Source: Candidatus Tenderia sp.
GTDB taxonomy: Bacteria; Pseudomonadota; Gammaproteobacteria; Tenderiales; Tenderiaceae
Length of the DNA: 64,000 nucleotides
Assembly: GCA_031416075.1 (NCBI GenBank)
Contig: JANOSY010000055.1
Location: 9,156-73,155, forward strand
Direction: 5' to 3'
Shown here: positions 9,004-30,578 of the stretch, one piece after another
How the letters are laid out: each line of letters begins with the position of its first letter
How positions within the stretch are numbered: the first letter of the stretch is position 1
Program-made: the position numbers and the translations under genes
Notes under the pieces: generated by a model
What the model was told of the DNA's origin: nothing
What the model saw: only the letters and a program-made list of their open reading frames with translations
The model's database searches: none

Positions 9004-9363
9004 GGGGGCGATCTGGCTTCGACGTGGATTGCGAAACCCAAGGTGCATGCCGAGGTGTAGGTCCCCTCGTAAAACAATCTACAAACTTATAGTTGCCAAC
9101 GAAGACAACTACGCACTCGCTGCTTAATACCCAGTAGGGTGCCCTCGGCCCAAGTCTGTGCTTGTGCACTTGGTAACCGGGGTCGACTCACACAAGCTCG
9201 CGATGAAGTTAGTCTGGCACCGATTCGTTAAATTCTTACAGACTCGCCGTATGTTTTCCCTGCCAATCGGGTAGCATGCGGTTAAATTAATAGATTGGAT
9301 AAGCATGTAGAGCTGACGGCAGAGGATTTGCGGACGCGGGTTCGATTCCCGCCGCCTCCACCA
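9004..9363 (+). ncRNA. ssrA: tmRNA (one-piece); tag peptide ANEDNYALAA at 9095-9127
   Basis: 5' GGGGGCGATCTGGCTTCGAC; 3' T-arm GGGTTCGATTCCC plus GCCGCCTCCACCA; internal tag ORF ending ALAA-stop; directly after smpB. Confidence 0.97.
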
Positions 9364-10830: not shown

Positions 10831-11514
10831 ATGTCAGATAAAGTATATAGCCGCAGATTAATATCCTTACGAATAAAAGAATTTAAGAATGGCACGCCTC
10901 CACAAAAGCACTCACTGACACAGCTCCTTGAATATATTGGGAATGAGATTGAACTAGCATCACATGAAGAGGAAAAATTAGATAAAGATTGGTCTATCTT
11001 AAGAGATGCCCATCAATCTGCTTGTCGAGAATTAAACAATAGCAACAATGAATCAGCAGGCTGGATTTACTTCAAATTAGGAACACTTTATGAACGTCTG
11101 ACATCAGCTTATTATGAGGATCTAATGGATGATGTAATAGAGGACTACAAAGGCTTGGTCGACGCCGAATATAAACACACCAATCGAGAAGACTCTAGAT
11201 TAAAAGCACTACATACCAGAAATAATGCCAGCAAAGCTAATAAAGAACTAATCCAAATATGGGCAACAGAAATCTGGAAAAATGACATTTCAAAATCAAT
11301 TCGCCTAACTGACATGTGCGATGTGATTCACAAAACAATGGAAACCAGGGTAGAAAACGAAATCAAAGATGTATTTAAAGATGATGCGGATGATTGCAAG
11401 GAATGGATAGAAGCATTAAAAAAAGCCATCCCAAAAAAATCCGAGAGTCTTAAGCCATGGCTAAGAGAGGTAGCCCCTGATTACGCAAAAAAGCCTGGAA
11501 GACCAAAAAAATAA
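10831..11514 (+). CDS. Hypothetical protein with C-terminal PGRPKK (AT-hook-like) tail
   Basis: 227-aa AT-rich ORF with RBS, lying between int and alpA. Confidence 0.8.
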   Translation: MSDKVYSRRLISLRIKEFKNGTPPQKHSLTQLLEYIGNEIELASHEEEKLDKDWSILRDAHQSACRELNNSNNESAGWIYFKLGTLYERLTSAYYEDLMDDVIEDYKGLVDAEYKHTNREDSRLKALHTRNNASKANKELIQIWATEIWKNDISKSIRLTDMCDVIHKTMETRVENEIKDVFKDDADDCKEWIEALKKAIPKKSESLKPWLREVAPDYAKKPGRPKK

Positions 11515-13696: not shown

Positions 13697-14047
13697 CTAT
13701 TTTGAGCAAGGGAACGAATCAACCAGCCCATAGAACAATATAAGCTCCACGGGTACTTCAGGCGTTTTAGACTCCTTATACTCCGCAATCTTCGCGTCAA
13801 GAATAGCCATGTAATTATCAGCATTTAATGTCATTTTTCTGGGAGGACAGTATAAAGGAGGGCTTCCCCTGTTTTCTAAAATCACATTACTCCACGCATA
13901 GCCATCACCAACACCATTTATATGGAACAACATAGAAGCTCTGGATTTGGTTTTTAGTTCTTCATATCCTTGAACGTCAAGAGCGATTGCAGGTCTGGCA
14001 AAAAATAATGCTAAGAGTAATATCAGAACTACATTTTTATTTTCCAT
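13697..14047 (-). CDS. Secreted Rap1a/Tai-like immunity protein
   Basis: Signal peptide ending PAIA; YCPP..., C-terminal FPC two-cysteine pattern typical of the Rap1a family. Confidence 0.6.
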   Translation of the reverse strand: MENKNVVLILLLALFFARPAIALDVQGYEELKTKSRASMLFHINGVGDGYAWSNVILENRGSPPLYCPPRKMTLNADNYMAILDAKIAEYKESKTPEVPVELILFYGLVDSFPCSK

Positions 14048-14224
14048 AGCTTCTTTTCCATAGAGCCTAACAGGCAATAGACGGGCATCCATAACGCCAC
14101 AGTGTATTTAGCATTCAGACAACCGTATATTAATACCAATAGTACTGAAGTACTGACGGTAATAGCATGCCAAGCATGAAGCCCTCCCACTCTAACCTAA
14201 CCGTTAGATTATCTGCCATAGTTT

Positions 14225-14822: not shown

Positions 14823-15926
14823 TCATTGTGGAATAGAAATCGTACCCCGGCATTTTGGAAAGTTAGTGCACCCCCAAAACTCCTTACGATCATCACCGCC
14901 TTTTTTTGCGGCCCGCTTTACCATGGATGAACCACATTTAGGACAGACAGGGGCTGAATCAACACCTGGCTCCACACCAGCGGTAACCTCAACCTTCTCT
15001 GTTGTAGCAGGCTGATCGCCAGCAACAATCGCAACCACACCCCGACACTTAGGAAACCCGGAGCAGCCATAAAACTCCTCACCAGGGTTTTTACCTTTTT
15101 TAGAAGAGCGCCTGACCATCTCTTTGCCACACTTCGGGCATTTGGGAGAATCACCGGCCTGCTCACTTATCGGCTCTGCAACAACCATCGCGTCAAGCTC
15201 ATCCAGCGCAAACTTTGCCTTGTAGTTAATTGCTACTGGCTTGTGTAATAACGCCAGCTTATTGGCAAATGTAGTTAAGCTCTGTGTTGAAATAACCTTA
15301 GCCAGACTCATCACGAAAGAGAATGATTCATCATCAAAGTCTTTGTTAAACCGTTCCTTAAACTTGTCTGATTTCATCACCCCACTACAGTCATACAGCC
15401 CTTTGGTCGGTTTGGTGAGCCTCGATTGTGGCGATATCAGTACAATGTTGCGGTAATTCGGTTTGATTTTGATGCCTAGTCTGGTGGGCAGCAGATCATT
15501 GTCATTTAAAAGACAATCCAGAAGTCTGATATGCCTCTCATTTTGTGCGATAGGCGATGGGATAGAGTATGGTCTGTTTTTATAAAAATAGCTGAAGTCA
15601 CCCTCTTCAGAAATGACCACCCCACTATTGAAGTTCTTGGTCTCAATCACATAAACATCAAGCATTCGGCCAATTAACAGATGGTCAATCTGGGCGACAT
15701 CACCATCATGCTCAAGCCGCAGGTCATGAATCAGTACCCAGTTTTTAGTATTTCTGAAATCAAAGTCGAGATAATAAGAGGAGGAGTTTTCCCCCTTATT
15801 ACCGGAATAAAGTGACTTCAACTCACGATCAATCAGACTCTTTTTATCAGCCGGAAGATCACGCTCAAGAAGGTCAGACAAATAATCAATCTGCGCCTGA
15901 CAATCATCTTTATTTTTAATGATCAT
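14823..15926 (-). CDS. NERD nuclease-related domain protein with two topoisomerase-type C4 zinc ribbons
   Basis: GNKGE, LIHDL, QIDHLLI, VIETKN, PIAQNERH; two CPKCG..FYGC/FWGC..FPKCRG repeats. Confidence 0.9.
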   Translation of the reverse strand: MIIKNKDDCQAQIDYLSDLLERDLPADKKSLIDRELKSLYSGNKGENSSSYYLDFDFRNTKNWVLIHDLRLEHDGDVAQIDHLLIGRMLDVYVIETKNFNSGVVISEEGDFSYFYKNRPYSIPSPIAQNERHIRLLDCLLNDNDLLPTRLGIKIKPNYRNIVLISPQSRLTKPTKGLYDCSGVMKSDKFKERFNKDFDDESFSFVMSLAKVISTQSLTTFANKLALLHKPVAINYKAKFALDELDAMVVAEPISEQAGDSPKCPKCGKEMVRRSSKKGKNPGEEFYGCSGFPKCRGVVAIVAGDQPATTEKVEVTAGVEPGVDSAPVCPKCGSSMVKRAAKKGGDDRKEFWGCTNFPKCRGTISIPQ

Positions 15927-16076
15927 TTAAATACCACTTAAAAATATTAAACAACAAGGCAAGACACCGCTCAAGCAACCCATCACAACCAACTAGCAGA
16001 CAACACCTAAAACTGCGTGCGAGATAGCATATGCTGACGAAGGAGGCGCATCAGTCGATACACACAAATGATGCAC

Positions 16077-19000
16077 TTAGCCCCTCTGGTCCAGCACTCC
16101 CCCTCCCCCTCCCCTCCCTACAATCTCCATCAGCTTGCCAAAGCTGTTTACCACATCGTACTTCACCTGCTCTGACTTGATCTTGCGGTTTATCTCATCA
16201 AAAAACTTACGGGCGCATTCGATTTTTTTATCTTCAATGGCACGTAGCTGCATTGTAGACATGCTTCCCTTAGTCTCTGCCACAAAGTAAACATGCTTCA
16301 CCGTCCCCTCTTTGAAAGAGATAGCCCAATCTGGGTGGTAATCACCAACAGGGGTTGGGATAAAAAATCCACGCGGGAGCTTGGCGTAAACCACCACCTC
16401 AGTACTGCTATCCAGCTCGCTGGCAAACGTCCGTTCAACTGTCGATTCCGTTACCACATAATCATAGATATGGTGCTTTAACTTCTCGGTGGCATTACTG
16501 AAGTCCTGCCTGCTCTGCCCGGCGGTGAAGATGTCGATATTGTGGGTCTCGGCAAGCTCATCGTAGGTAAGCTGTTCGATAATCACCGTTGCCTTCTGCT
16601 CTTTAATCAGGCGGCTGGCTTCGCTGATAAAGTGCTCGGGGTTTTGTTTGAACTGGGCAAACACAATGGGTTGTATAGCGGCCAATATCCCGGCGATGGT
16701 TCGGCGGGTGAGTTGTGTATTCTCTGCCAGTTTACCCAGCAGGTCATACTTCACCATGGAGTGAATGGATGTGCCATGGGTTTCGGTTTTGGTGTTCTGC
16801 AACTTAAATCCGGCACCGTTTTTCGACTCATCATCCGTCACCTCATCCCCTTGAACACCGACTTGAATGGTGTATTGCAGCGGACTGACACGCAGCTCTT
16901 TATCCAGCACCCGCACACTGTTTTGTATCAGTTCACTGGAATCAAACTCCACGCGATAAACCGCCTTGTGATTGATACGTGCCCACAGCTCTTTGAACTC
17001 CTTCCTGTCAAAATTGGCATTAAGTGAATTGGTCTTAGAGGCGCGGTCATTCTCAGTCTGATTCAATTGCGTCTCACTGAATACGCTATCGATCAACCTA
17101 AATATCTGTTCTGCATAAGGTGCCAGCTCTGGCGGTAACTCCGCCAGCTCGCCCCTAGCTTTAGCGGTGTGATAAACCTCAGCAATTTGATCTGTCGCAT
17201 CGTCGGTGTAGTCATTCTTCAACAGATATTTGTAGATCTGCTTGGCCATCACTGGGCTGATTTCCAGCGTGCCAGTGTCGGTTTTGATAATCTTGCCGCT
17301 GAAATAAGCCTCGTCCGCCTTTCTTGGTCGCGCCGAAAGCGAGTCGCTGATTTCACGTTGCAGGTTGGCGACAAAATCCTTGTAGCTTTCGCTCGCCACC
17401 ACCGTCAGCACGTTGATCTCATGCACCGTGGCAGGATGATCCATGCGATCCCCCTGCTGATTCACTGACAGGCGCAGACCACGCCCGACTTCCTGACGGC
17501 GTGAGATGGTGTTGTCGCTGTGTTTGAGCATACACATCACAAATACATTGGGATTATCCCACCCCTCACGCAGCGCTGAGTGGGAGAAGATAAACCGCAC
17601 CGGCTCTTCAAACGAAAGCAGCCGCTCCTTCTTTTTCAAAATCAGATCATAAGCATCCACATCGTCAGACAACCCCGCGCCTTCACCACGGGCTTTAAAA
17701 CTCGGGTCAACCAAACGCTTGGATTTTTTATCAATCGAAAAATAACCCTCGTGTACCTTGGCAGCCTTATCCCGTGCCAGATAGGTTCGATACGCCTCGT
17801 TATCCAGCGGCAACTCACTCAGATACTCACTCTTGAGTTGTTCGTACTCCTCTTCAAACACGCGGGCGTAGGCACCATTTTCATCGGGCTGGCTGTAGTC
17901 GCGGTATTTCACCACCTCATCGATAAAAAAGAGCGACAACACCTTAATGCCCTGGCGGTGGAGCTGCTGCTCTTTTTCCAGATGGGACTTAATGGTTTCG
18001 CGGATTTGAATGCGGCGAATGGTCTCTTCTGTCACATCCCCCGTGGCATCACCCGCACTCAGCACCTCGCCATTGCTAAATTCCACGGTATCGTGGTGGG
18101 CATCAATCTGGGCAATCACAAAACCCGCGTATTGATCCAGCCCGTTAGAGGCATCAAACAGATTGCGCCCCTTCTCCAGCCGTAGCAGCTTGCGCTGAAT
18201 CGTGCCGGATTTTAGTTTCACCTCCAGCTCCATACGCGCCACCGGAGCCTGTTTAGAAATCTCGATGGACTCCAGATAGAGATAGGCACTGGTCCCAGCC
18301 AACCCTCTGACGGTAATGCCACGCACCGCGATCTTCTTCACCAGCTTCTGGTTATAGGCATCCAACGCATCAAGGCGATGAATCTTGTTGTGCTGGGTTT
18401 TGTGGGTGGCGGAGTAACGCATGATCATCAGCGGTTTAAACTTGGCCAGCGCCTCCAGCGTCTTTTTGCCCTCCATCTTCTGCGGTTCATCCAAAATCAG
18501 AATCGGGCGATTAGCACTGATTACATCGATAGGACGGCGCGACTGAAAATCATCCAGCTCGTCATAGATGCGGCGATTATCCTTGCCCACCGCATTAAAT
18601 GCCTGAATGTTAATCACCATCACATTGATACCGGCATCGGAAGAAAAACTCTCCAGATGGTGCAGCTGTTTGGAGTTGTAGATAAAAAAGCGCGCCTTTT
18701 TCCCGTAGCGCTCGGTAAAATGTTCCGCCGTTATCTCCAGCGACTTACACACCCCTTCACGAATCGCGATGCTCGGCACCACCACAATAAACTTGCCCCA
18801 GCCGTAACGTTTGTTCATCTCAAAGATGGTTTTGATATAGCAGTAGGTTTTACCGGTGCCGGTCTCCATCTCCACATCCAGATTAACCTTGCACCCGGCA
18901 CTGCTCACCAACGTATCGGAGATGGGCAGATTTTGCAGCCGCTGCACGGTGTGGATATTTTCCAACAGCTGTTGTTCACTCAGCTGAAACTCTGCATTTT

Positions 19001-19169
19001 TAAAACCGTACTCACTCGCCACGGTACTGCCAACGATCTTGCCCTTCGCCACATGGCCCGGATCAATACGGTATTGCAGCCCCGCTGTGTTCACATGGCC
19101 GGCAAAACAGTCCACCACCGACTCCACCGCATTGGTCTGGTAGCCTTGTACTTTGAATTTAAGCTTCAT
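16077..19169 (-). CDS. res: Type III restriction enzyme Res subunit
   Basis: [35 protein letters not shown]-terminal PD..ETK endonuclease motif. Confidence 0.95.
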
Positions 19170-19851
19170 CACTCACTCCTGCTAATTGTTCGAGTGACGT
19201 TAGCCAACCGTTAAATAACGGGCATTTTTCACGCATTGTCGCTATGCCGATTTCTCTGGCGATAGCAATGCCGGTGGTGGTTTTTTTAAATTTACCGCCG
19301 GGTGACCATGCATCCAACCGTTTGCCGGGGGCAGTGTTAGGGCTGTTGTTGATTGCCTCAGGCGCACCACATTGAGCGATAACACCGTCTACTACCTCCT
19401 TATCGATGCCCACCCTTGCGGCCAGCACCTCACTATTGCTAAACAACAGCGCTGCAAACTCATGAACCGCGAGGTAGGGGATAAAGCGGGTTTCAGCTCG
19501 CACGTTTGGATACTCTTGCATCACCGCTGACAGCGTTGCACCGTTTACAACCTCAGCAATCTTTGCAGGTACCGCCCCCCTTGGCACTTGGTCTATACCC
19601 GGCCACTCTTTAATTCCGTAATAATCGACAATCGTCGTAATGTAGGTATCTGAGCGCTGCTTGAGGTGATTTCTCAAATCCTTTATCGTACGGCTAAACT
19701 TCACATCCCCACCTTTTTGCCCAGGCTTTGAAACCAGGGTTGCCGTCATATAGACATTTCGTTCGGCAAGATATGGCTTGAGGATGGAATCTACAAAAAC
19801 CTGTTCAGTTTTGCCCTCTACAATGGCGATCACCTCAACGTAATCACTCAT
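19159..19851 (-). CDS. DUF4276-like TOPRIM-fold protein
   Basis: [15 protein letters not shown], HEFx[28 protein letters not shown]. Confidence 0.8.
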
Positions 19852-20956
19852 AGCTTGGGCCTCCGGCAATCACGTTTTTAGTCCACAATTCACCGACAGA
19901 ATAATCCTCCAACCAAACAGAAAAATCCTTTTCCTCTAAACGCTTGAAGCTTGAGGCACCATTTTCTCGGTTCACCACCACAATATCCTCAATGGCAAAC
20001 TGATCAATCAAGGCGGGTGATTGAGTCGCAACAATCACCTGGGTACGGGTGGCGGCAGACTGAATAAGCTCCGCCAGAATCACAATGGCCGCCGGATGCA
20101 AACCCAACTCCGGCTCATCGATAATAATGGTGGACGGTGGCTTAGGTTGCAGTAGAGCCACAGCCAAACAGATAAAACGAATCGAACCATCAGACAAGTG
20201 ATAAGGCTGCATAGGGTAGTCCGAGCCTTTTTGTCTCCAGCTGATATTGACCTCTTCTTTATCACCACTCTTGCGCGGAGTGAGAATAAAATCATCAAAA
20301 AAAGGTGTGACCAAGCGGATTGCATCGATGATTTGTTGGTAGACCGCACTATTTTCCTGTTTGAGTTTTAAAAGAAACGGGCCAATATTCGCCGCGTCAG
20401 CTCGCAACACAGCACTGTCCTGCACAATTGCATAATTGCGCATACCCGCTGTTGAGCTGGTATCGTGGAAGTGATAAATCTGCCAGGAGGCAATGGCCTC
20501 ATAAACAGGCCTGGAGTATTTAGCGTCCGACTTGTTTTGCTTAACCTCCTCGGCCATTTTTGACTTGCCATCCTCACTATCCCCCAACTCCCACCATCCC
20601 GTTGAGCCACCACGGTAATAACGCGCTTCATCCTCAAGCGCACAACCATCACTTGGGGTGGAAACTAGCTTGAAGCGAAAGCCATGGGAGCCAAAACGGG
20701 TCTCGAACTCCATTTTATCTGTCACTTTACGGCCATTAAAAAGTAGATCCCCCGCCCCGCCACTATCCCGCACATAACGATTCAGTTCACCATCGATCAA
20801 TGACCTTAATAATTTAAAGAATGAGATGAGATTGCTCTTACCCGAACCGTTGGCTCCCACCACCACATTTAGGTTGGTCAACTCAAAATCCACTAGGTCA
20901 CGAATTGATTTAAAACCTTTAATGGTAATTTTATCTAACGCGTTACTCATACCCAT
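19844..20956 (-). CDS. ABC-type ATPase (AAA_21/AAA_15-like)
   Basis: GANGSGKSN, YHFHDT, LSDGS signature, IIIDEPELGLHP, ATQSP. Confidence 0.9.
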   Translation of the reverse strand: MGMSNALDKITIKGFKSIRDLVDFELTNLNVVVGANGSGKSNLISFFKLLRSLIDGELNRYVRDSGGAGDLLFNGRKVTDKMEFETRFGSHGFRFKLVSTPSDGCALEDEARYYRGGSTGWWELGDSEDGKSKMAEEVKQNKSDAKYSRPVYEAIASWQIYHFHDTSSTAGMRNYAIVQDSAVLRADAANIGPFLLKLKQENSAVYQQIIDAIRLVTPFFDDFILTPRKSGDKEEVNISWRQKGSDYPMQPYHLSDGSIRFICLAVALLQPKPPSTIIIDEPELGLHPAAIVILAELIQSAATRTQVIVATQSPALIDQFAIEDIVVVNRENGASSFKRLEEKDFSVWLEDYSVGELWTKNVIAGGPSYE

Positions 20957-20960
20957 CTCC

Positions 20961-22841
20961 TTAAATTGACTTCACGTCGGTAGCAGGTGAGAGCTGCTTA
21001 AAGATCTGCTCAACGTTGATCTTGACCGCGTCGGAGGCAAAGCCGTTGTCGCGGAACACCACGCGCAGTGGTTGATGCTGGGCCAGCGCTTTCACCAGCG
21101 CCTCGTTCACACCCGTATCAAAACAGGCGACCAGTGCGTTTTCATCGACAAAAAAGAGCGTCTTGCCTTGAAGGGTTTGTTTGTGAATTGGCAGCGCCAA
21201 ATCCACACCCCAATCCAACAGCACCTGAAACAGCAGGTCTTCGGCGCTGCGGTCGGGTTTAAGGTTGTCGATCTGGGCAAACAGATCGCCGTGCTGAACT
21301 TGGTCAGGGGTGTAATAGACATCAGCCATATTGGAGGAGTCGATTTTGAGGACACGGAAGCCGACATCCTTGTTCCAGCCTTCGTGGCATTCGCCTTCAA
21401 GGATTTCTTTACCGGCGCGGCGGATACGTTCTTTGCTGATTTCGGCGATGGTTTTGTAGCCTGCTTTGAATGCCTCTGATTTTTCGTCACAAATTTCAGG
21501 GAGCTGAACCATTATGAATTTACGATTACCACCATCTTCAGCGTTGAGTTGTATAACTGAATGAGCAGTCGATGACACACCTGCAAAAAAGTCCAAAGCA
21601 ATGTCGTTTGGATTTGTAGAAATTAGTGCAACTCTCTTTAGTAGCTCAATAGGCTTAGGTGTTTCAAAGACTGACACGCCATCAAAAAGAGTGTTCAATG
21701 CGCGTTTAGCTGAGTCAGTTGTCCCCACTTCTTCCGCCCCCCACAAAGTATGGGGAGTTAGACCTGCATTCTGCTCTGAGAGAAATACCTTTTGTCTGGG
21801 TACGTTACTGCCACCAGCCCCGAACCAAATACGGTTGTCTTCTATAAGCTGTTTAAGCTTGATCTCAGTAAAACGCCAGCAGTTACCTGACGGTAAATCA
21901 ACTACTCGGCCATTAGGTGTTTTAATTGAATAAAATTGACTTTTCGTACCATGACCTGCTTGAGCAGTTATCGCAACGGATTGCCAATCCCCCCTTAGAT
22001 CATTATCAGGATTCGAATATCGTGCTCGTGCTTCATTTGTAAGAGGAAGCAAATTTCTGACTTTCTCAAATAAAGTTTTTTCACGAGAAAAACAGACTAT
22101 ATAGTCATGATTTGTTGAAACCACTTTTCGATTTTCACGTGTTTTACGTTTTTGCCATATAAAAACAGAAACAAAGCTATCATCTCCAAATAGCTCTCTA
22201 CAAAGTGCTATTAAATTTGCCAGTTCCTTGTCATCTATGGAAATCCAGATAGAACCTTCTTCGCTAAGAAGATTTTTTGCCAACTTCAATCTTGAATACA
22301 TCATCGTCAACCAATCCGAATGAAACCGCCCATTGGCTTCGGTGTTGGCCACCAAACGATTGCCCTCTTCGTCTTTTTGGTTGGAGCGTTTTAGGAACTC
22401 ATCACTGTTTTCCGCAAAGTCATCCTCATAGATAAAATCTTTCCCAGTGTTATACGGTGGGTCGATGTAAATCATCTTCACCTTACCCAGATAGGTCTCC
22501 TGCAACAGTTTGAGGGCGTCGAGGTTGTCGCCTTCGATAAAGAGGTTTTTTGTGGTGTCAAAATCGACACTCTCTTCCCGGCAGGGGCGCAGGGTTTTGG
22601 CGATGGGGGCGTTGGCGGTGAGCAGCGCTTCGCGTTTGCCGGGCCAGTTGAGGTGGTAGCGCTCTTGCGGGCCTTCAACAATGGAATCGCTTAGCTCCTG
22701 GCGCAGTTGGTCAAAATCCACCGCCAGTTTCAGCTGACCATCGTTACCCTTGGCCTCGGTGATGCAGTTGGGGAACAGCTCGCGCAGGCGGGCAATGTTT
22801 TCATCGGTGAGGTTGGGCGAGTGCATTTTTAGTTTGTTCAT
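20961..22841 (-). CDS. mod: Type III R-M DNA methyltransferase Mod subunit
   Basis: IEGDNL, IYIDPPYNTG, PKP, LDFFAG motifs (beta-class amino-MTase); upstream of res. Confidence 0.95.
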   Translation of the reverse strand: MNKLKMHSPNLTDENIARLRELFPNCITEAKGNDGQLKLAVDFDQLRQELSDSIVEGPQERYHLNWPGKREALLTANAPIAKTLRPCREESVDFDTTKNLFIEGDNLDALKLLQETYLGKVKMIYIDPPYNTGKDFIYEDDFAENSDEFLKRSNQKDEEGNRLVANTEANGRFHSDWLTMMYSRLKLAKNLLSEEGSIWISIDDKELANLIALCRELFGDDSFVSVFIWQKRKTRENRKVVSTNHDYIVCFSREKTLFEKVRNLLPLTNEARARYSNPDNDLRGDWQSVAITAQAGHGTKSQFYSIKTPNGRVVDLPSGNCWRFTEIKLKQLIEDNRIWFGAGGSNVPRQKVFLSEQNAGLTPHTLWGAEEVGTTDSAKRALNTLFDGVSVFETPKPIELLKRVALISTNPNDIALDFFAGVSSTAHSVIQLNAEDGGNRKFIMVQLPEICDEKSEAFKAGYKTIAEISKERIRRAGKEILEGECHEGWNKDVGFRVLKIDSSNMADVYYTPDQVQHGDLFAQIDNLKPDRSAEDLLFQVLLDWGVDLALPIHKQTLQGKTLFFVDENALVACFDTGVNEALVKALAQHQPLRVVFRDNGFASDAVKINVEQIFKQLSPATDVKSI

Positions 22842-22866
22842 GGCGATCTCTTTTTTCAGCGCGGGT

Positions 22867-24126
22867 TTACAGCCCGGCGGCGTTAACACTGGCGGTTATT
22901 GTTTGGCGGCGTGTCTGCATCAGTTGCTGGATGGCGGTGATGCAGGCGCGGGCTTGGTCTGTTTGTTGAAATTCCTGGGCGATAATCGGTGCCTGTTGTT
23001 GCAGTGCGGTGGCGGTTTTATCCAGGGTTTGTTTCACCAGTTTAAAACCGATGCCGCACTGCTGCGCCAGCTGTTGCCAGCTGCGGGCGATGATCCAGTC
23101 GGGCCGATCTTCGCCGCCGATTTTCATCGCGGGGCGGTCACTCAGGCCGGGGTAGATGGTGGTGCTCATCAGGTCGTAAAACGGTGCGAGTTTGGGGCCT
23201 TGGCGGGTGAGCAGTAGTGATACGTTTTTACCGTGGGCGTCGGCATTGCCGATGAGGTAGTTGAAGGCGACCCAGTTGAGCAGTTGGCGCAGGTCAATCA
23301 CCGGCTGGATGCTCTGTTTGCGTATCAGTTCAAAACAGGCGGCCAGTGTGGGGCCGCCCTCTTTTTCATATTTAATTTCGGGCAGTATGGCCAACGCCTG
23401 GCAGAAGTCTTCCTGATGCAGGCGTTGGATCGGCTCGGCTGGCGAGCTGCGCTGGCGATCATAACGGCTGACCAGGTAGAGCCATTGGCCGCGATTTTCC
23501 AGTAGGCTCACCTGCGGGACATTTAATCCAACGGCTGCAGCCAGACGCATGCAGTAGGCTTCGTTAAAAATGCTATCCGGGTAGTGGCTGATAGCCGGTT
23601 TGAGGATGTGGCTGCTGGCGGCATTGCCTTGCGGCAGGCTGATCTGCTGGCCATCAAAATAGACCGGTAGTTTATTTTGCACCCCGGCCAAGGAGAGTCG
23701 TAGCTCCCCTTCCCCGGCCAGCATGGGCTGTTGTGGCAGTTGTTGAATCAGCTGCTGTAGTTGTTCCTCATCCAGCGGTTGATAACGACCGGGTTCGGTG
23801 GGTGGCTGTTGATCTTCGGGGTAGAGGCTGACGGCGCCGGCGCATTCACCACCAATGGCCTCTAGCAGGGCGTAGTCGTTTTTGTCGGAGAGGCCCAGTT
23901 TGCGGGCGATGGCGCTACGCAGCTCGGCCTCGGGCAGCAAGTTGGCAAAAAATGGCCGGGCGCTGTCGTCACTGTAGGGGGCTGCACGCAGCGGCAGCGA
24001 GAGTGAGAGTGGTACGGCCTGTTCATCGGCCAGCCAGGTGGCATGGTATTGAAAAACAAAACGGCGTTGGCCATCGAGGGCCAGTTGGCCGACGTGCTGC
24101 TGGTTGAGGTAGACGGCCAGGGCCAT
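22867..24126 (-). CDS. hipA: HipA-family kinase toxin
   Basis: Couple_HipA N-terminus (PLSLSLPL), SLAGVQNK, RLHQEDFCQAL, GNADAHGKN, LAPFYDL; TAATG overlap with upstream antitoxin. Confidence 0.93.
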   Translation of the reverse strand: MALAVYLNQQHVGQLALDGQRRFVFQYHATWLADEQAVPLSLSLPLRAAPYSDDSARPFFANLLPEAELRSAIARKLGLSDKNDYALLEAIGGECAGAVSLYPEDQQPPTEPGRYQPLDEEQLQQLIQQLPQQPMLAGEGELRLSLAGVQNKLPVYFDGQQISLPQGNAASSHILKPAISHYPDSIFNEAYCMRLAAAVGLNVPQVSLLENRGQWLYLVSRYDRQRSSPAEPIQRLHQEDFCQALAILPEIKYEKEGGPTLAACFELIRKQSIQPVIDLRQLLNWVAFNYLIGNADAHGKNVSLLLTRQGPKLAPFYDLMSTTIYPGLSDRPAMKIGGEDRPDWIIARSWQQLAQQCGIGFKLVKQTLDKTATALQQQAPIIAQEFQQTDQARACITAIQQLMQTRRQTITASVNAAGL

Positions 24127-24395
24127 TAGTCGGCCTCGCCATTGCGATTGTTTTGCCAGCCGCGTGGCTGAAGGTGCAGTTCCAGCCCAAGGCACTGGAT
24201 GACGGCCAGCACCTTGCCCAGTTCGGCGGTGGCTTTGCCGTTTTCCAGGTCGGAGATAAAGCGGGTGCCGACACCACAGAGGGCGGCAAATTCCGCCTGG
24301 GTGGCCCCCTGCTGTTTGCGGGTGGCGCGGACGATGTCACCGATATCCTGCGGCAGTGAAATTTTCCCGTACGGTATTTCTTTGTTCGACGGCAT
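24126..24395 (-). CDS. hipB: HipB-like XRE antitoxin
   Basis: IVRATRKQQGATQAEFAALCGVGTRFISDLENGK HTH. Confidence 0.9.
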   Translation of the reverse strand: MPSNKEIPYGKISLPQDIGDIVRATRKQQGATQAEFAALCGVGTRFISDLENGKATAELGKVLAVIQCLGLELHLQPRGWQNNRNGEAD

Positions 24396-24476
24396 GATGC
24401 TCTGCTTAGATTGTTCCCGTTCGGTAACTATAGTGTTGGTTGCGGCTTTAAACAAGCTGTTTATTCCCGATCAGTA
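24364..24476. promoter_or_regulatory. Three putative HipB operators
   Basis: TTCCCGTACGGTA (24364), TTCCCGTTCGGTA (24414), TTCCCGATCAGTA (24464); pseudo-palindromic, exactly 50 bp apart. Confidence 0.7.
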
Positions 24477-24511
24477 TTTTTTAAGGCACTAGATATCCCT
24501 CTTCGCACCGC

Positions 24512-24580
24512 GTAGGTTCGAATTTATTCGAACAATACTCTGTCGGTAAACGCATGAGTGCGAATAAATTCGCACCTACC
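24512..24580. repeat. GTAG-type REP doublet (REPIN)
   Basis: GTAGGTTCGAATTTATTCGAAC ... GTGCGAATAAATTCGCACCTAC in inverted orientation. Confidence 0.8.
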
Positions 24581-24609
24581 TGCCAGCTGATCAGTGCGTT
24601 CATCACCAA

Positions 24610-24650
24610 CCCTTCGACGGGTTCGGGACAGGCTCAGGGCGAACGGGGTT
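24610..24650 (+). repeat. CCTTCGACAGGCTCAGG..GAACGG-class palindromic repeat
   Basis: Related copies at 29287-29315 and (inverted variant) 29221-29245. Confidence 0.65.
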
Positions 24651-24652
24651 GT

Positions 24653-25327
24653 TCATTCTGTTTGCAGTTGCGCCAATGCCTCTTTGTGCTGGCGCAACTG
24701 GCTGTTGAGTTCGACCTTGCGGTTGAACTGTGGCTCTTTGTGCAGCCGGGTTTCAAGTTGCTCGCAGAGGCGCTGCTGGACGCGAATCTGCTGGATACGG
24801 GCAACTTGCTGTGGCAGCCCCTCCCCCACTTTGGCGGGTTCCGGCAGGTAGGCGCGCAGGAGCTGTTCATAGAGGCTGGCCAGATCCAGCGCTACGGGTA
24901 GTTCGCTGGTGGCGCTGTTGGCGGGTTGCCAGTCGCTGCTGAAATAGGCCTCGACCAACCACTGTTTGCTATCAGCTTCGTTGGGACGTTTGTAGGCGAT
25001 GGTGGTTTTGAGCTGTTCGCCATAACGCAGCTGGTAGAGGATGGGGATACGCACCTGTTGGTCGAGGGTGCGCAGTACCTCTTCATGTAGATCCGGAGTT
25101 TTGAGTTGCAGTTCAATGACGGCGATTTCGGCTATGCCATGTTTGGCGGGCAGGTTGATGGTTTCTGGCGCGAGGACGTAGAGCCAAGTGATTTTGTCGA
25201 GCTGGTTGATAAATAGGTCACGCAGCTTTTTGCCTACTTTGCCCTGCTGGTAGATTTTGCTTTTGGCGATCACCTTATGAAAGGCAGCTTGGGCGGGAAA
25301 ACAAAAGATAGGGCCTAGCTTATTCAT
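24653..25327 (-). CDS. DUF4391-like protein
   Basis: ITWLYVLAPETINLP, IAYKRPNE, KEPQFNRKVELN; coupled to the helicase by an ATGA overlap. Confidence 0.8.
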   Translation of the reverse strand: MNKLGPIFCFPAQAAFHKVIAKSKIYQQGKVGKKLRDLFINQLDKITWLYVLAPETINLPAKHGIAEIAVIELQLKTPDLHEEVLRTLDQQVRIPILYQLRYGEQLKTTIAYKRPNEADSKQWLVEAYFSSDWQPANSATSELPVALDLASLYEQLLRAYLPEPAKVGEGLPQQVARIQQIRVQQRLCEQLETRLHKEPQFNRKVELNSQLRQHKEALAQLQTE

Positions 25328-28300
25328 GGTGTGGCCGTCGCCTGCACAACCAGGAAACAGATCAGCTCAAAGTCATCCAGGCCGCTGATGGTGTGACGCA
25401 TGGCGGTAGTGGAGCTGCTGCCGGAGAAGAGGCTGTCGATGTCGCTTGCTTCTTTGAGGTCGATGATGGAGCCGATGGCTTGATCGAGCAGTGCCGAATA
25501 GAGCGCCATGTTGCGCCCATCCTGGGTGGCTTGATTAAAAATGGCACAGGCGGCCTGCACAGGTTCGCTGCGACCTTTGCTGGCGGCGCGGACTTTATCC
25601 AACAACAGTTTGACGTCGGTGTGGTTGACCACCACTTCTCCATCGAGCCCGATGTAGATCAGGTAGTAAGGGTGCAGGCGGTTTTGCTGGTTGATGTTAA
25701 CGCCGGAGTTGCGGTTGCGCAGCACAAAGACGACGCCGGGTGGCAGACCGCGTGCTGGGTCGGCGGGTAGTACGGTGTGCATGCCACTGGGCATGTTGGC
25801 CAGGTCGCCGTTTTGTTTGATGTAGTTGAGCAGGTCCATGCGAAAGTCATTGAGGCCGAGATCGGTGATGGAGACGCCGGTTTTCAGCTCTTCCATCTCG
25901 ATCACCTCTTCCTGCAGGCGGCGCAGCTGCTCCTTGCGGTAGGAGACGTCATTGGATTGGGTGTTGAGTACGTTGTCGTCAGCAGTAGCCGCAAGATCGG
26001 TAATGATCATGCGGTTTTCGACCCGCTCTTTGAGGTTGATGTACTCATCAAGGGTGATGTCGGGCCAGTAGTTGACCAGTTGAATGTACTTGTTTTTGGA
26101 ACCAATACGATCGATGCGACCAAAGCGCTGGATGATGCGCACGGGGTTCCAGTGGATGTCGTAGTTGATCAGGTAGTCACCATCTTGCAGGTTTTGCCCT
26201 TCGGAGATGCAGTCGGTGCCGATGAGGATGTCGATCTCTTCCGGCTCATTGGGCAGGACGATGGCCTTCTCTTTGGAGATGGGCGAAAACAGGGTGAGCA
26301 GTGATTGAAAGTCGTAGCCCTTTTTAAGCGTGGACTTGGGGCCATCACTACCCGTGACTTTGCCGGTGTGCAGGCCACGGGTTTTGTGGATGTGCTGGGC
26401 GAGGTTGTCGTAAAGGTAGTTGGCGGTGTCGGCAAAGGCGGTGAAGATGATGATTTTTTTGTTGCCGGGGTTGATCGGTGAGGCCAGTTTGCTTTCGATC
26501 TGGGTTTTAAGGTGCTGGAGTTTGGCGTCGTCACTCGGGGTGACTTTTTGCATCTCTGCCAGCAGGGCTTCTATCAGCACCAGATCGGCGGCCAGGTCGT
26601 TTTGCCAAGAGAGCAGATCCATATCGTACAGGCTGATTTTTATCTTGTTGCCGATGGTGGCGTCATTCAAGTCTGGTAGATCATCTTCATCAAACTCGGC
26701 ATCGGCAAAAGCGGTGGCGATATCCTCAAAAACAGCTTCACCGCCGGTGCGTTTGAACTCTGCAATTTTTTCCAATGTATTTAGGTGGCTGCGTTGCAGG
26801 TTCTGCAAGGTCATACGGAAGGCGTAGACCGAGCTTTCCAGGCGCTTGAGCAGATTGGTGATCATAAGCGCTTGCAGGCTCTTTTCCCGGTCGGCCTGTC
26901 TCAGCTTGCCTCTGCCACCCCCTACTTCGGTATCGTAAAGCGCTTCGTATTTGGCCAATCGGCTAGGCAGTATATAACTGACAGGGGCATAGACAGAGAG
27001 GTTTAATGATGAGAGCTGGGCAAAGATTTCGTTAAAGCCGATCACATCTTCACGCTGTGTGAGTGGGCTGTGTACCGAGATGGGTTTAAGGCGCTCGGGG
27101 AATTTGCCAATGTCGGCAGTATCGTAAAAGGTTTCGATATGTTTGCGCGAACGGGCGATGGTGACGCTATCCAACAGTTCAAAGAAGTCAAAGTCCAGGG
27201 CGTTGAGTATGGCGGCGGCGGTGCGCTCTTCTGGTGGCAGTGTTGACCAGTGATTAAAGGCCGCTTGTGCCTTGCGGAAGACCTCATCTATGCTTTTTTC
27301 GGTGCGCAATTTTTTGGTGAGGTTTTCCGAGTCCCCTTCGTAAGCCAGCGCCAGCTGGTTTTTAAGATCTGCAAAACGGTTGTTCACTGGCGTAGCTGAG
27401 AGCATCAGCACCTTGGTTTTTACACCGGCTTTTATGACGGCGTTCATCAGACGCTGATAGCGGGTTTCACGATCCTTATAGACATCGTTATTACGGAAAT
27501 TGTGTGATTCATCGATCACCACTAGATCATAGTTGCCCCAGTTGATGCGGTTGAGCGGCATGCCGAAGGATTCACCCGTGGTACGTTGCAGGTCGGTGTG
27601 GCAGAGCACGTCGTAGTTGAAACGGTCTTTGGCAAAGATATTGGTGGTGAGATTGCTGTTGTAATTTAGCCAGTTGTCCGCCAGTTTTTTGGGGCATAAC
27701 ACCAAGACTGATTTATTGCGGAGTTCGTAGTATTTAACCACGGCCAGCGCGGTGAAGGTTTTGCCCAAACCGACGCTGTCGGCCAGGATACAGCCGCTGT
27801 AGGTTTCCAGTTTGTTGATGATGCCGGTGGCGGCATCACGCTGGAAGTTAAAAAGTTTGTTCCAGATCAAACTCTCCTGATAACCGGTGCGATCATTGGG
27901 CAGTACGTCTTCGGAGATATCCTCCAGAAACTCATTAAAGATGTTGTAGAGCATCAGGAAGTAGATGCGTTCAGGTGAATTTTCGCGGTAGACAGAAGCG
28001 ATGTGGTCGCAGAGTCGCTCAGTGACATCTTCAAGTTTTTCGCTGTCACGCCAAACTTGATCAAACAGGCTGACGTAGCGCCCGGTCATAAGTGGATCAT
28101 CTATTTTGTTGACGAAGTTGGAAACGGCATCGCCTTGTTGGTAACCCAAATCAACGGCGGTAAAACCATGTAGTGGCATGTATGCCGATTCACTCTGCTG
28201 ATCCTTTACACAGATGAACTGCTGCATAGGGGCTTTGCTACGATTGGAACGAAAGGCGGCTTTGCGGCGCATCCAGTCGGCACACTCTTTGGCTATCGCC

Positions 28301-28605
28301 CGTTGGGTGAGTCTGTTTTTGAGTTGTATCTCAAATTCAGTGCCGTAGATGCTGCGCTCGCGCTCTGCTTTGGGAATCAGGAATTCGCGACGCTCTTTTT
28401 TGAGTTTATCTGTGACCTCTTCTGGCACGAAGGTGGGGGATGTAAATATGAACTCTAGCGATTCAATGCCCTCAAGCTCTTTTTTCAGGGCTTCATAGGC
28501 ATAGATAGAAAAACATGAGGCTGCGATTTTAAGGCGCGCCCCCGGCTTGATGGTCTGTTTCAGGTTGTCGCCCAGGAGCTGATTGATGTTATCTATAAAG
28601 TCCAT
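25324..28605 (-). CDS. SNF2-like SF2 helicase associated with type III R-M
   Basis: DSVGLGKT, DESH, SATP, SEGQNLQ, WNPVRIIQRFGRIDRIG. Confidence 0.92.
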   Translation of the reverse strand: MDFIDNINQLLGDNLKQTIKPGARLKIAASCFSIYAYEALKKELEGIESLEFIFTSPTFVPEEVTDKLKKERREFLIPKAERERSIYGTEFEIQLKNRLTQRAIAKECADWMRRKAAFRSNRSKAPMQQFICVKDQQSESAYMPLHGFTAVDLGYQQGDAVSNFVNKIDDPLMTGRYVSLFDQVWRDSEKLEDVTERLCDHIASVYRENSPERIYFLMLYNIFNEFLEDISEDVLPNDRTGYQESLIWNKLFNFQRDAATGIINKLETYSGCILADSVGLGKTFTALAVVKYYELRNKSVLVLCPKKLADNWLNYNSNLTTNIFAKDRFNYDVLCHTDLQRTTGESFGMPLNRINWGNYDLVVIDESHNFRNNDVYKDRETRYQRLMNAVIKAGVKTKVLMLSATPVNNRFADLKNQLALAYEGDSENLTKKLRTEKSIDEVFRKAQAAFNHWSTLPPEERTAAAILNALDFDFFELLDSVTIARSRKHIETFYDTADIGKFPERLKPISVHSPLTQREDVIGFNEIFAQLSSLNLSVYAPVSYILPSRLAKYEALYDTEVGGGRGKLRQADREKSLQALMITNLLKRLESSVYAFRMTLQNLQRSHLNTLEKIAEFKRTGGEAVFEDIATAFADAEFDEDDLPDLNDATIGNKIKISLYDMDLLSWQNDLAADLVLIEALLAEMQKVTPSDDAKLQHLKTQIESKLASPINPGNKKIIIFTAFADTANYLYDNLAQHIHKTRGLHTGKVTGSDGPKSTLKKGYDFQSLLTLFSPISKEKAIVLPNEPEEIDILIGTDCISEGQNLQDGDYLINYDIHWNPVRIIQRFGRIDRIGSKNKYIQLVNYWPDITLDEYINLKERVENRMIITDLAATADDNVLNTQSNDVSYRKEQLRRLQEEVIEMEELKTGVSITDLGLNDFRMDLLNYIKQNGDLANMPSGMHTVLPADPARGLPPGVVFVLRNRNSGVNINQQNRLHPYYLIYIGLDGEVVVNHTDVKLLLDKVRAASKGRSEPVQAACAIFNQATQDGRNMALYSALLDQAIGSIIDLKEASDIDSLFSGSSSTTAMRHTISGLDDFELICFLVVQATATP

Positions 28606-28737: not shown

Positions 28738-29150
28738 TCACCCAACAAACATTTTCCAATAAATATTCACTATCTGTTCTTCATTCCACACATACGAAAG
28801 ATGCGCTCCCTGTTTGGGGATGCTGACGATGGGTGGTCCTAGTGCGGCGATGCACTCTCCGCCCGTGCCCCTTGCCGAACGATAAACAATGCCCCAGCTG
28901 TTGCCACGTATGTCGTGCAGTGGTTTGACCACCTCGCCTATGTAGACACGCATAGCAATCCAGCCTGCATCCTTCTGGGTGTAGGTGTAGGCAAGAAAGC
29001 AGGCGCAGCTCTGTTTGCTCTCTCCGTAGCCGATCATTGGTGAGGGATTCTATATAGTAGAGCCCCATCAGGTCTACCTCCACCAGCCGTTCAAAAAGGT
29101 TAATGGGCGGGTACTGGCTTGGCCAGTCGAGTTTAGAATTCCACAACCTG
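28738..29150 (-). pseudogene. RES-domain toxin remnant (frameshifted, internally deleted)
   Basis: SQYPPINLFERL..IESLTNDRLR in one frame; RVY..LHDIRG..WGIVYRSAR..GECIA..QGAHLSYVWN in another. Confidence 0.75.
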
Positions 29151-29220
29151 ACCCCTGCTTTTGGATTTAGGAAACCTCTGAATAACTCTTCCTCACCCAA
29201 AATACTTCGTGGGGCAGACT

Positions 29221-29315
29221 CTTCGTGGTGAGCTTGTCGAACCATTAATGGAGGGATCTTAATAGTCAATATGTTACGTCACCAGTCCTTCGACAGGCTC
29301 AGGACGAACGGGGTT
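29221..29315. repeat. Inverted pair of CCTTCGACARGCTCA-class repeats
   Basis: TTCGTGGTGAGCTTGTCGAACCA ... CCTTCGACAGGCTCAGGACGAACGG. Confidence 0.65.
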
Positions 29316-29336: not shown

Positions 29337-30578
29337 TTAATCAGGCTTGCTGACCTGTGTCTGTAACTCCAGCAGTTCCTCCTCCACCCCCGCAGCGGCG
29401 GTGAGTTTGGCGACGTTGTCTTTGGTAAAAAATCCATCAAAGTCACCAAAACGCTGTACGTATTCGATGATGAGTGAGGAGTGGTCGGAGGCGCTGGAGA
29501 AGATCTGTTTTAAACCATCCTCTTTGGAGCCGATGACGTCGAGCAGGAACGCTCGCCCCTGGGCCTGAATTTGATTAACGACGTAGTTGATGTTTTCAAC
29601 GCCGTTGCTTTCGCCGTCACGCACGGCCAGTGCTACGTGGTGTAGCCGTGGGCCGTAGTTTCTGACGAAGGTTTCAGTGGGGGATGGTAGCCGCTCCAGA
29701 TGGTTTACAAAGTATGGGGTGTTGTTGGCGGTGAAGACTTTGGCAGGGCTGCGCATCTCTTCGAGGCGGTGGCTGTTTTTGGTGACGTTGGTGGAGGAGT
29801 TTTGATCTTTGATGTCGTAGGAGCCCCAGTAGTAGTAGCTGGAGAGTGAGAGCCATTCGAGGATCGCCACTTCGCGGTTCTGGCTGTATACACGGGTGGC
29901 GAGGTGGTCTATCGGGCCGATGAGTTTATCGATGCCCAGCTCTGCCTGCAATGTTTTGGCGGCCAGGTAGACATCCTGCACGTCGGCACGAATGGTGCTG
30001 ATGCCCAGCGCGTAGGTGCGGATCTGTTCAGGGGTGCGCTCTACGTAAGCGACGATGTTGTGGGTGTAAGGAGAGGGTTTGTTGACGGCGAGATTGCCGG
30101 GCAGCTCCATTTTCCGCAAGACATCCTGGGAGAAGAAGCGAAACTCCCGCGATTTTTGTAGCTCGACCACGCCGTGCAGGTCGTTGACCCGCAGGATCTC
30201 ACCCATGTAACGGCTGTTAGGTTTGCGTGAGCCGATGGGGTAGACCTCGTTGAGGCTGCGAAAGATGCCCCGGATGTTTTCATCTTTGACTTCACGTACC
30301 AGCAGGTCTGGCGACTGCATGTCGATGCGGAGGATGTGGGTCCAGTGGGTTTCGCTCTCCAGCGTCACCAAATAGTTGTAGGGGGTCATCAGCGCCAGTT
30401 CACCGATGTATTCGATGGAGTGGCCGGGATCAACGGTGAGCATGAGTGCGTCGATCTCGTGGATCATGTCGCTTAACCCGATCCGGTCACGTTCGGTCAA
30501 CAGCCGTTGCAGATATTCTTCAAAGAAGGGTGAGTTCTCTTTGTCACCATGGCGGGCAAACTCCAGCGATTTAGTCAT
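29337..30578 (-). CDS. Uncharacterised VOC/HPPD-like metalloenzyme
   Basis: IDHLAT, TETFVRNYGPRLHHVAL, LKQIFS, IIEYVQR..FDGFF..NV parallel the HPPD C-domain His/His/Glu motifs. Confidence 0.7.
   Translation of the reverse strand: MTKSLEFARHGDKENSPFFEEYLQRLLTERDRIGLSDMIHEIDALMLTVDPGHSIEYIGELALMTPYNYLVTLESETHWTHILRIDMQSPDLLVREVKDENIRGIFRSLNEVYPIGSRKPNSRYMGEILRVNDLHGVVELQKSREFRFFSQDVLRKMELPGNLAVNKPSPYTHNIVAYVERTPEQIRTYALGISTIRADVQDVYLAAKTLQAELGIDKLIGPIDHLATRVYSQNREVAILEWLSLSSYYYWGSYDIKDQNSSTNVTKNSHRLEEMRSPAKVFTANNTPYFVNHLERLPSPTETFVRNYGPRLHHVALAVRDGESNGVENINYVVNQIQAQGRAFLLDVIGSKEDGLKQIFSSASDHSSLIIEYVQRFGDFDGFFTKDNVAKLTAAAGVEEELLELQTQVSKPD

Follow-up and report, generated by a model that had tools for sequence, protein, structure and literature searches.

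The DNA under study is a 64-kb window, the whole stretch that was analysed, of Candidatus Tenderia sp. contig JANOSY010000055.1, and all coordinates refer to it. The locus of interest occupies positions 14823-28605 on the minus strand. It is a type III restriction-modification (R-M) operon in which a gene for an SNF2-family helicase and a gene of the DUF4391 family precede the methyltransferase gene mod and the restriction gene res, and in which other modules stand between these genes. We identified the genes using Pfam, PADLOC and NCBIfam profiles run on the window proteins, and the junctions were read from the sequence. An earlier reading of the DNA letters alone (the sequence-only reading) had placed nine co-oriented frames here: SNF2 helicase, DUF4391, hipB, hipA, mod, ABC ATPase, DUF4276, res and a NERD/zinc-ribbon gene. 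All nine were found in those places on the minus strand, with domain matches far beyond chance. The features of the locus, in order of transcription, with protein lengths in amino acids (aa), are as follows.

25324..28605, minus strand: SNF2-family helicase, first gene of the cassette, 1093 aa; SNF2-rel_dom 9e-12, Helicase_C 1.5e-12
24653..25327, minus strand: DUF4391 protein, 224 aa; PF14335 1e-50
24396..24652, minus strand: intergenic region, putative hipBA promoter and HipB operators; 22-nucleotide inverted repeat 24512-24533 / 24558-24579
24126..24395, minus strand: hipB, helix-turn-helix (HTH) antitoxin, 89 aa from the ATG; HTH_3 9e-09
22867..24126, minus strand: hipA, Ser/Thr kinase toxin, 419 aa; HipA_C 8e-54 and Couple_hipA 6e-31
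20961..22841, minus strand: Mod, the type III methyltransferase, 626 aa; full-length match to MTase_III at 6e-244, N6_N4_Mtase
19844..20950, minus strand: ABC ATPase (HEC-01A), 368 aa; AAA_21 3e-43, HEC-01A 1e-142
19159..19851, minus strand: DUF4276 TOPRIM-like protein (HEC-01B), 230 aa; PF14103 2e-50, HEC-01B 9e-67
16077..19169, minus strand: type III restriction subunit Res, 1030 aa; REase_III E=0, ResIII and RE_endonuc 1e-32
14823..15926, minus strand: nuclease-like NERD protein, 367 aa, carrying a pair of C4 zinc ribbons of the topoisomerase type; NERD 6e-19, two Zn_ribbon_Top1

The helicase and DUF4391 genes overlap by 4 nucleotides (nt; ATGA), hipB and hipA by 1 nt at 24126 (TAATG), the ATPase and DUF4276 genes by 8 nt, and DUF4276 and res by 11 nt, with the res ATG at 19169. 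The spacing is 25 nt from hipA to mod and 10 nt from mod to the ATPase gene, which is preceded by GGAG. The mod start at the ATG at 22841 is backed by the N-terminus MNKLKMHSPN, which matches the conserved start M-x-KLK-x-H of 18 related Mod proteins. The open frame of hipB extends to a TTG at 24455, and the ATG at 24395 is its most likely start; the gap behind DUF4391 measures 257 nt to this ATG and 197 nt to the TTG. The sequence-only reading had described the genes as mostly overlapping or a few bases apart. This is true of most junctions, but the 257-nt gap preceding hipB had gone unmentioned. The guanine-plus-cytosine (G+C) content is 59-60% in hipBA, 55% in DUF4391, 52% in the helicase gene, 51% in res, 49% in DUF4276, 47% in mod and the ATPase gene, and 44.5% in the NERD gene. 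Because the G+C content differs among the modules, the operon is a mosaic. The NERD gene had been taken as the terminal gene of the operon. The gene itself and the 150-nt gap after res were confirmed, but this gap and the 44.5% G+C content make it better described as a neighbour than as part of the operon.

Mod and Res have the composition of a type III R-M system, an N6/N4 methyltransferase together with an SF2 helicase-like ATPase that carries a C-terminal endonuclease domain. Residues 17-642 of the long mod frame cover positions 2-621 of 621 of the PADLOC profile MTase_III (PDLC03634), and the catalytic motif DPPY is present. Res covers positions 1-986 of 989 of REase_III (PDLC03647). It reaches 376 bits against NCBIfam NF012027, whose equivalog cut-off is 564, and so it is not an equivalog of that family. 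No simple-sequence tract suggesting phase variation was found in mod. At the extreme 3' end of res there is a CTCCCC repeat of 3.8 copies (16097-16118; GGGGAG on the coding strand), which is too short for a phase-variation call.

The two genes in front of the R-M pair are less familiar. The best PADLOC model for the helicase is C3a139 'HKD+Snf2' (3e-132, residues 180-1088). Weaker likenesses, to DrmD (1e-41), PLD-helicase (3e-35), DpdE, BrxH and ZorD, are all below the curated cut-offs. The N-terminal 250 aa and the C-terminal 240 aa contain no recognised domain, and Pfam searches at E<=5 with the N-terminal, middle and C-terminal pieces gave nothing credible. A structure model of the helicase from a 27-row alignment reached a mean per-residue confidence (pLDDT) of only 49. 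In the AlphaFold2 model of DUF4391 (pLDDT 90), long C-terminal helices come after an alpha/beta domain. A Foldseek comparison of this model with the PDB gave nothing at E<=1e-3 (best E 0.05, template modelling score about 0.2), and in the ESM Atlas only DUF4391 clusters were recovered. A complex prediction of DUF4391 with three pieces of the helicase scored 0.31 against a mark of 0.32, which speaks neither for nor against binding. Two DUF4391 fusion proteins were both uninformative: P0151, and P0163 with 500 further residues matching no family. P0151 (729 aa), in which helicase residues 1-533 are joined directly to DUF4391, resembles a product of deletion or of misassembly more than a natural fusion. 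The literature on DUF4391 (PF14335) yielded no paper on its function; one paper seems to use the name where DUF7941 is meant.

The four-gene arrangement of helicase, DUF4391, mod and res is not peculiar to the window. A profile built from 25 DUF4391 proteins was scanned over one genome per species. It gave at least 599 pattern matches; 553 of these passed confirmation, and we retained the best 80 (L002-L081). Genes of these relatives were found using our own open reading frame (ORF) caller and phmmer searches with the window proteins. The 80 loci span Gamma- and Betaproteobacteria, Verrucomicrobiota, Planctomycetota, Acidobacteriota, Desulfobacterales and others. Together with one E. coli chromosome (L001) they make 81 loci, and in these we found the helicase 79 times, DUF4391 74 times, mod 73 times and res 64 times, the shortfalls being mostly due to contig ends. 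In the E. coli chromosome the order is WYL regulator, helicase, DUF4391, a 900-aa UvrD-like ATPase, mod, res and a TrlF ATPase. All three plasmids inspected from among 39 tblastn matches (from E. coli, Acinetobacter indicus and Mycolicibacterium vanbaalenii) carry the helicase, DUF4391, a methyltransferase and a DEAD-box Res with nothing between them, and their DUF4391 proteins are just 33-36% identical. The sequence-only reading had called this a recurring type III neighbourhood, and the 80 loci, the E. coli chromosome and the plasmids bear it out. Throughout the 84 other loci examined, mod-res has the helicase and DUF4391 in front of it, and in the sampled loci the helicase-DUF4391 pair never occurs without mod and res where the contig permits a view. 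The 4-nt overlap of the helicase and DUF4391 genes recurs in 47 of 61 related junctions. Without cargo, DUF4391 and mod mostly lie 1-51 nt apart, and mod and res lie 0-17 nt apart in 27 of 29 cases. Of 1.84 billion cluster representatives, 2608 match the DUF4391 profile at E<=1e-3.

Four loci (L001, which is the chromosome of E. coli PCP06171, L032, L044 and L076) have a WYL-domain regulator immediately upstream of the helicase; the window has none. Elsewhere the upstream neighbour of the helicase is a part of a toxin-antitoxin (TA) system (HicB, MazF, ParE) or an HTH_17 protein.

We next give the occupancy of the two junctions that the sequence-only reading had proposed as cargo hotspots, DUF4391/mod (slot 1) and mod/res (slot 2). 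A slot was considered filled when the gap in tblastn coordinates exceeded 250 nt, in the best 80 of the 553 loci. An earlier ORF-based count (28/73 and 33/63) was discarded; it counted shadow ORFs where the DUF4391 gene was displaced. Slot 1 is filled in 25 of 76 loci and slot 2 in 33 of 63. Where both slots are visible (n=63), both are filled in 13 loci, neither in 24, only slot 1 in 6 and only slot 2 in 20. With this occupancy, with defence-like cargo and with the fast turnover described below, the hotspot proposal holds. Two further positions are also variable. In 13 of 79 loci (L003, L011, L013, L030, L033, L039, L054, L057, L060, L063, L067, L068 and L073) more than 250 nt separate the helicase from DUF4391; seven inserts were scanned, and they encode a 23S-rRNA-IVP protein (3), PIN, DUF5615, a weak HTH or an unknown protein. 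The position after res holds GmrSD, KAP NTPase, AAA_13, SMC-like ATPases, SIR2_2 or DUF2130.

We scanned 68 of the 87 slot ORFs, since the remaining 19 were short or opposite-strand shadow frames and were dropped. A named PADLOC family was matched at E<=1e-20 by 25 of the 68 proteins. These families are SoFic (5 proteins), HEC-04, PtuA with PtuB (Septu), Old (2 proteins), SIR2 with HerA (3 loci), IetA with IetS, and the PDC families PDC-S02, PDC-S04, PDC-S05 and PDC-S13. Pfam added PIN toxins, PLD-like proteins, PDDEXK_3, DUF559, DUF2779 and DUF2130. The commonest cargo of slot 2 is a protein of about 555 aa with SLFN_AlbA_2 and HATPase_c_4 domains (7 of 7 scanned proteins positive). Its homologues occur in 17 loci and match no PADLOC family beyond weak partial matches. 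In 14 of these loci the gene is in the mod/res slot (L010, L012, L014, L019, L021, L022, L027, L029, L032, L045, L056, L060, L064 and L074); L068 has it in slot 1, L035 has a split copy and L031 an 89-aa relic. We consider this protein a candidate defence gene.

The cargo of the window is rare among these relatives. A HipA homologue was found in one of the 80 loci (L036, 27% identical, upstream of the helicase), and the ATPase/DUF4276 pair also in one (L019, upstream on the opposite strand, with identities of 47% and 36%). None of the best 80 of 553 loci has hipBA or the ATPase/DUF4276 pair within a slot. The sequence-only reading did not recognise the whole combination of genes as a characterised system. 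Indeed, the exact combination is absent from the 84 other loci examined, although every part taken singly is of a known kind.

To follow the turnover of the cargo, we built a FastTree tree of 63 full-length helicases and compared the changes of cargo labels on it with those of shuffled labels. Slot 1 shows 17 label changes over 59 rows, where shuffling gives 18-19, and slot 2 shows 19 over 52 rows, where shuffling gives 21-25. Scaffolds that are nearly identical carry different cargo (L004 and L012, L019 and L016, L062 and L068, L065 and L080). The cargo is spread almost at random on the helicase tree and turns over fast. In median identity to their relatives, the window helicase stands at 74%, Res at 66%, Mod at 54% and DUF4391 at 48%; the helicase, the most conserved part, shows 70-79% identity to its counterparts in 65 related loci. 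In the 38 loci with all four genes complete, the pairwise identities of helicase, DUF4391 and Res correlate with one another (Spearman 0.68-0.70), and those of Mod with each of the three only at 0.26-0.36. The helicase and Res share the same nearest neighbour in 23 of 38 loci, the helicase and Mod in 7 of 38. These correlations suggest that the helicase and DUF4391 belong functionally with Res. Mod is out of step with the other three, which suggests that it is exchanged independently, probably via its recognition domain. Among the relatives and the window together, pairwise identity of the helicases is 66-99% across several phyla with a median of 75%, and the medians are 70% for Res, 54% for Mod and 54% for DUF4391.

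In the window, slot 1 contains a HipBA module. HipB belongs to the couple_hipB family TIGR03070 (82.8 bits, cut-off 71.65). HipA aligns with the solved HipA structures of Shewanella (1e-49) and E. coli (7e-48), and the SLAGVQNK loop, the catalytic stretch GNADAHGKN and PFYDL are kept in the alignment. The upstream gap contains a 22-nt inverted repeat whose arms are 91% complementary, each arm with the palindrome CGAAT-N2-ATTCG. By analogy with the autoregulation of hipBA in E. coli, as described in the text of PMC13092281, this repeat may be a pair of HipB operators. The pair thus has the features of a type II TA module: a coupling-domain kinase with its motifs, an upstream HTH antitoxin, overlapping genes and putative palindromic operators. 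Judging by the motifs, the module looks intact. It resembles HipBA of E. coli and Shewanella in the two-domain kinase, the HTH antitoxin, the overlapping genes and the upstream palindromes, and differs from them in its place within a restriction operon.

Slot 2 of the window contains an ABC ATPase next to a DUF4276 protein. The ATPase has Walker A (GANGSGKS), the signature (LSDGS) and Walker B (IIIDEPE), and its residues 3-367 match positions 1-362 of 363 of the HEC-01A profile. An HEC-01A ABC ATPase adjacent to an HEC-01B DUF4276/TOPRIM protein is what PADLOC defines as HEC-01, a system pairing an ABC ATPase with a TOPRIM protein named by Payne et al. 2024 (doi 10.1101/2024.01.29.577857). In passages of PMC12065111 and PMC11464382, DUF4276 is placed in the TOPRIM superfamily as a homologue of Mad4. 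Searched in distant mode, HEC-01 DNA had no match in 5426 E. coli genomes. We compared the pair with other ATPase-nuclease systems. Like Mad3-Mad4 of MADS as described in the same two sources, it combines an ABC ATPase with a DUF4276-type TOPRIM protein. Membership in MADS was rejected: the ATPase is far below the NCBIfam MAD3 cut-off (101 bits against 420), and the operon has no mad1, mad2, mad5, mad7 or mad8. PARIS was also rejected, as the partner is DUF4276 and not DUF4435, no AriB model was matched, and the AriA models match only as generic AAA_21 (1.8e-34). In PrrC of EcoprrI and in PARIS (AriAB), too, an ABC ATPase and its partner nuclease lie within or next to an R-M system; they fire on anti-restriction proteins and are called 'RM guardians' in passages of PMC12707154 (for PARIS also PMC11464382). 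In contrast to them, the nuclease candidate of the window is DUF4276, neither DUF4435 nor an anticodon nuclease, and the host is a type III system, not type I.

The NERD protein after res keeps an IDH...VIETK motif (the D...ExK pattern) and two CPKC...C..C ribbons. Its NERD match (6e-19) includes the ETK motif, and the gene has no adjacent ATPase partner of its own, whereas HEC-02 has a partner ABC ATPase. None of the best 80 related loci has a NERD gene after res.

We then compared the whole operon with known systems. Payne et al. 2024 report defence systems embedded in Hma (62.7% occupied), BREX, DISARM and type I R-M operons, with 96.7% co-orientation. The loci studied here resemble these in that small co-oriented modules of many kinds are nested in a methylase-containing operon, and the occupancy is similar (39 of 63 loci, about 62%, against 62.7% for Hma). 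They differ in the host, which is the helicase-DUF4391-type III cassette. The principle of embedding is already in print, and so the locus is less new than the sequence-only reading assumed. The Results and Discussion text of Payne et al. 2024 mentions no type III hosts and no DUF4391. Nothing on this cassette was found in the literature on type III R-M with SNF2 proteins, embedding and hotspots, including passages of PMC12839542, PMC12707154 and PMC2292703. Like Hma and DISARM, the window has an SNF2-type helicase and a methylase in one cargo-accepting operon; unlike them, it lacks the DUF1156 methylase, the DUF499 ATPase and DrmA/B/C, and its helicase scores far below the family cut-offs. 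Hma, according to the text of PMC11232893, consists of a DUF3883 helicase (HmaA), a DUF1156 methylase (HmaB) and a DUF499 ATPase (HmaC); HmaA matches partially (8e-25), HmaB and HmaC not at all, and membership was rejected. DISARM was rejected with 143 bits for DrmD against a cut-off of 610 and no DrmA/B/C in the operon. Membership in the BREX-related systems of PMC12839542, which its passages describe as centred on DUF499, was rejected as well. Mod and Res resemble an EcoP15I-like type III system in being full-length matches to the type III models of PADLOC. The differences are two extra conserved genes in front, the separation of mod from res in the window and a Res score below the equivalog cut-off. 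As far as the texts covered show, what is new here is the embedding in a helicase-DUF4391-type III cassette. The conserved helicase-DUF4391-Mod-Res cassette is a more interesting object than the combination of cargo in the window.

We think it likely that the locus is a mosaic operon in a genomic island at a tmRNA gene, built on a conserved four-gene cassette whose junctions accept self-contained modules. The core would consist of the SNF2 helicase, DUF4391, Mod and Res, with the translationally coupled helicase and DUF4391 as fixed companions of one Mod/Res lineage. Mod would methylate its site, and Mod-Res would cut unmethylated incoming DNA after ATP-driven sliding, in the type III fashion. 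In the window, slot 1 would hold a canonical hipBA with its operator-like region, slot 2 HEC-01, and the variable place after res the NERD gene. The nested modules would be co-transcribed with the R-M genes and act as independent second lines. HipA would halt translation through phosphorylation of a tRNA synthetase after the loss of labile HipB, and the ABC ATPase would respond to a cue from a phage by setting the TOPRIM nuclease free. The cargo is probably gained and lost by homologous recombination in the conserved flanks, since such flanks around a variable centre would ease the exchange of cassettes. By their motifs HipA, the ATPase and the NERD protein look intact.

Several observations weigh against this explanation. 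Canonical HipBA is not known to defend against phage, and the validated HipA-family system HipAD/DS-6 has a partner other than HipB, as passages of PMC13092281 state. The HEC-01 representative protected against no phage in the E. coli screen reported in the preprint of Payne et al. 2024. The TOPRIM motif seen in the DUF4276 protein is the N-terminal Glu (VEGKTE), and the NERD protein matches no PADLOC family, including HEC-02B. A simple scan reported no promoter-like site on the minus strand in the gaps upstream of hipB and NERD. In addition, our frequencies describe close relatives of the window DUF4391 (the best 80 of 553), not the whole family, and the ORF calling in relatives was crude, so that small 'cargo' may be spurious.

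The sequence-only reading had suggested that the nested modules could trigger abortive infection when restriction is inhibited. In such an arrangement HipBA and/or the ATPase/TOPRIM pair would be held inactive by a working Mod-Res or by helicase-DUF4391 and freed by a phage anti-restriction protein, in the manner of PrrC within EcoprrI or of PARIS, which responds to Ocr. The modules are indeed embedded in an R-M operon and translationally coupled (ATPase/DUF4276 by 8 nt, DUF4276/res by 11 nt). The ABC-ATPase/TOPRIM systems include sensors of anti-restriction proteins, for example PARIS (described in PMC11464382); PrrC within EcoprrI and PARIS bear the guardian name cited above, and the Discussion of Payne et al. 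2024 proposes the same logic for embedded ABC ATPases. However, the same slots host unrelated systems that work alone elsewhere (SoFic, Septu, SIR2-HerA, IetAS, PIN), and the nearly random distribution of cargo on the scaffold tree argues against a tailored physical partnership. The other HEC-01 pair (L019) is outside the cassette on the opposite strand, and hipBA has its own operator-like region; this region and its differing G+C content fit an autonomous module as readily as a guard. The inactivity of HEC-01 in the published screen also counts against the guard, although this R-M partner was not present in the screen. The little evidence available leans against a tailored guard, and we consider it unlikely. 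A related proposal is that the four proteins form a distinct restriction machine, in which the SNF2 motor and DUF4391 work with Res, the junctions are docking sites for interchangeable modules and the state of the machine controls the release of HipA or TOPRIM. We likewise give this proposal a small chance. The pair in front of mod could also be an independent two-gene defence module beside an ordinary type III R-M system instead of a component of a single machine. Enzymes of type III, EcoP15I among them, function with Mod and Res alone, and the helicase resembles helicases that stand alone or belong to other defence systems, namely DrmD, PLD-helicase, DpdE, BrxH and ZorD, below cut-offs. But the pair is never seen apart from mod and res where the contig permits, the helicase and DUF4391 co-vary with Res, and the helicase is more conserved than Res (74% against 66%). 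Independence of the pair thus seems improbable.

It is somewhat easier, though still doubtful, to regard the cargo as selfish hitch-hikers, that is, addiction or mobile cassettes that are tolerated in an often-transferred operon, stabilise the island and contribute little or no phage defence. TA parts are common at every junction and in the flank: PIN occurs in slot 1, in slot 2 and between helicase and DUF4391, and HicB, MazF and ParE occur upstream. A frameshifted RES-domain gene lies just upstream of the window helicase, remnants of cargo such as the 89-aa SLFN-like relic in L031 exist, the G+C content differs among the modules, and HEC-01 was negative in the published screen. Payne et al. 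2024 discuss both this 'genomic sink' idea and the idea of a backup upon inhibition. On the other hand, the 25 of 68 scanned cargo proteins mentioned above belong to families with named defence roles, and the cargo is co-oriented and tightly packed, so it should be expressed with the R-M genes. Moreover, hitch-hiking does not exclude defence.

If the mosaic-operon explanation is true, the rule of embedding extends to type III restriction systems, and the cassette offers a compact and widespread place for seeking new defence genes, given the 2608 cluster representatives of DUF4391. Specific candidates would be the SLFN_AlbA_2 protein (17 sampled loci), the PLD-like proteins and the partners of DUF2130. 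The SNF2 helicase and DUF4391 also deserve attention, as a helicase that is more conserved across phyla than its restriction enzyme needs explaining. The window is a natural test case of whether HipBA, and HEC-01, which was inactive alone in the screen, gain phage defence inside a restriction operon.

The surroundings of the operon place it in an island. To the left of the locus lie smpB, a tmRNA gene and a tyrosine integrase gene.

9004-9363, plus strand: tmRNA gene (Rfam)
9529-10743, plus strand: tyrosine integrase, following the tmRNA gene

The tmRNA gene followed by a tyrosine integrase indicates a genomic island at ssrA. Rfam found only the tmRNA in the window. Neither exact 14-mers nor 25-nt stretches with at most 3 mismatches revealed a second copy of the tmRNA 3' end (attR) in the window, which leaves the island without a defined far edge. 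Beyond the helicase, at 30661-32370 on the minus strand, there is a gene whose product joins a PP2C phosphatase to a Ser/Thr kinase (PD-T4-6 2e-49, mad6 1.5e-41). Beside it, at 29337-30578 (minus strand), is a gene for a 413-aa protein without a Pfam, NCBIfam or PADLOC family. Together they may be another defence module of the island. Just upstream of the helicase, at 28738-29269 (minus strand), two frames overlap, and the match of the downstream frame to the RES domain is confined to the C-terminal end (2e-05); this looks like a frameshifted RES-domain toxin gene. Between the integrase and NERD genes, two frames of low G+C content, 10831-11514 on the plus strand (37%) and 13697-14092 on the minus strand (40%), belong to no Pfam, NCBIfam or PADLOC family.

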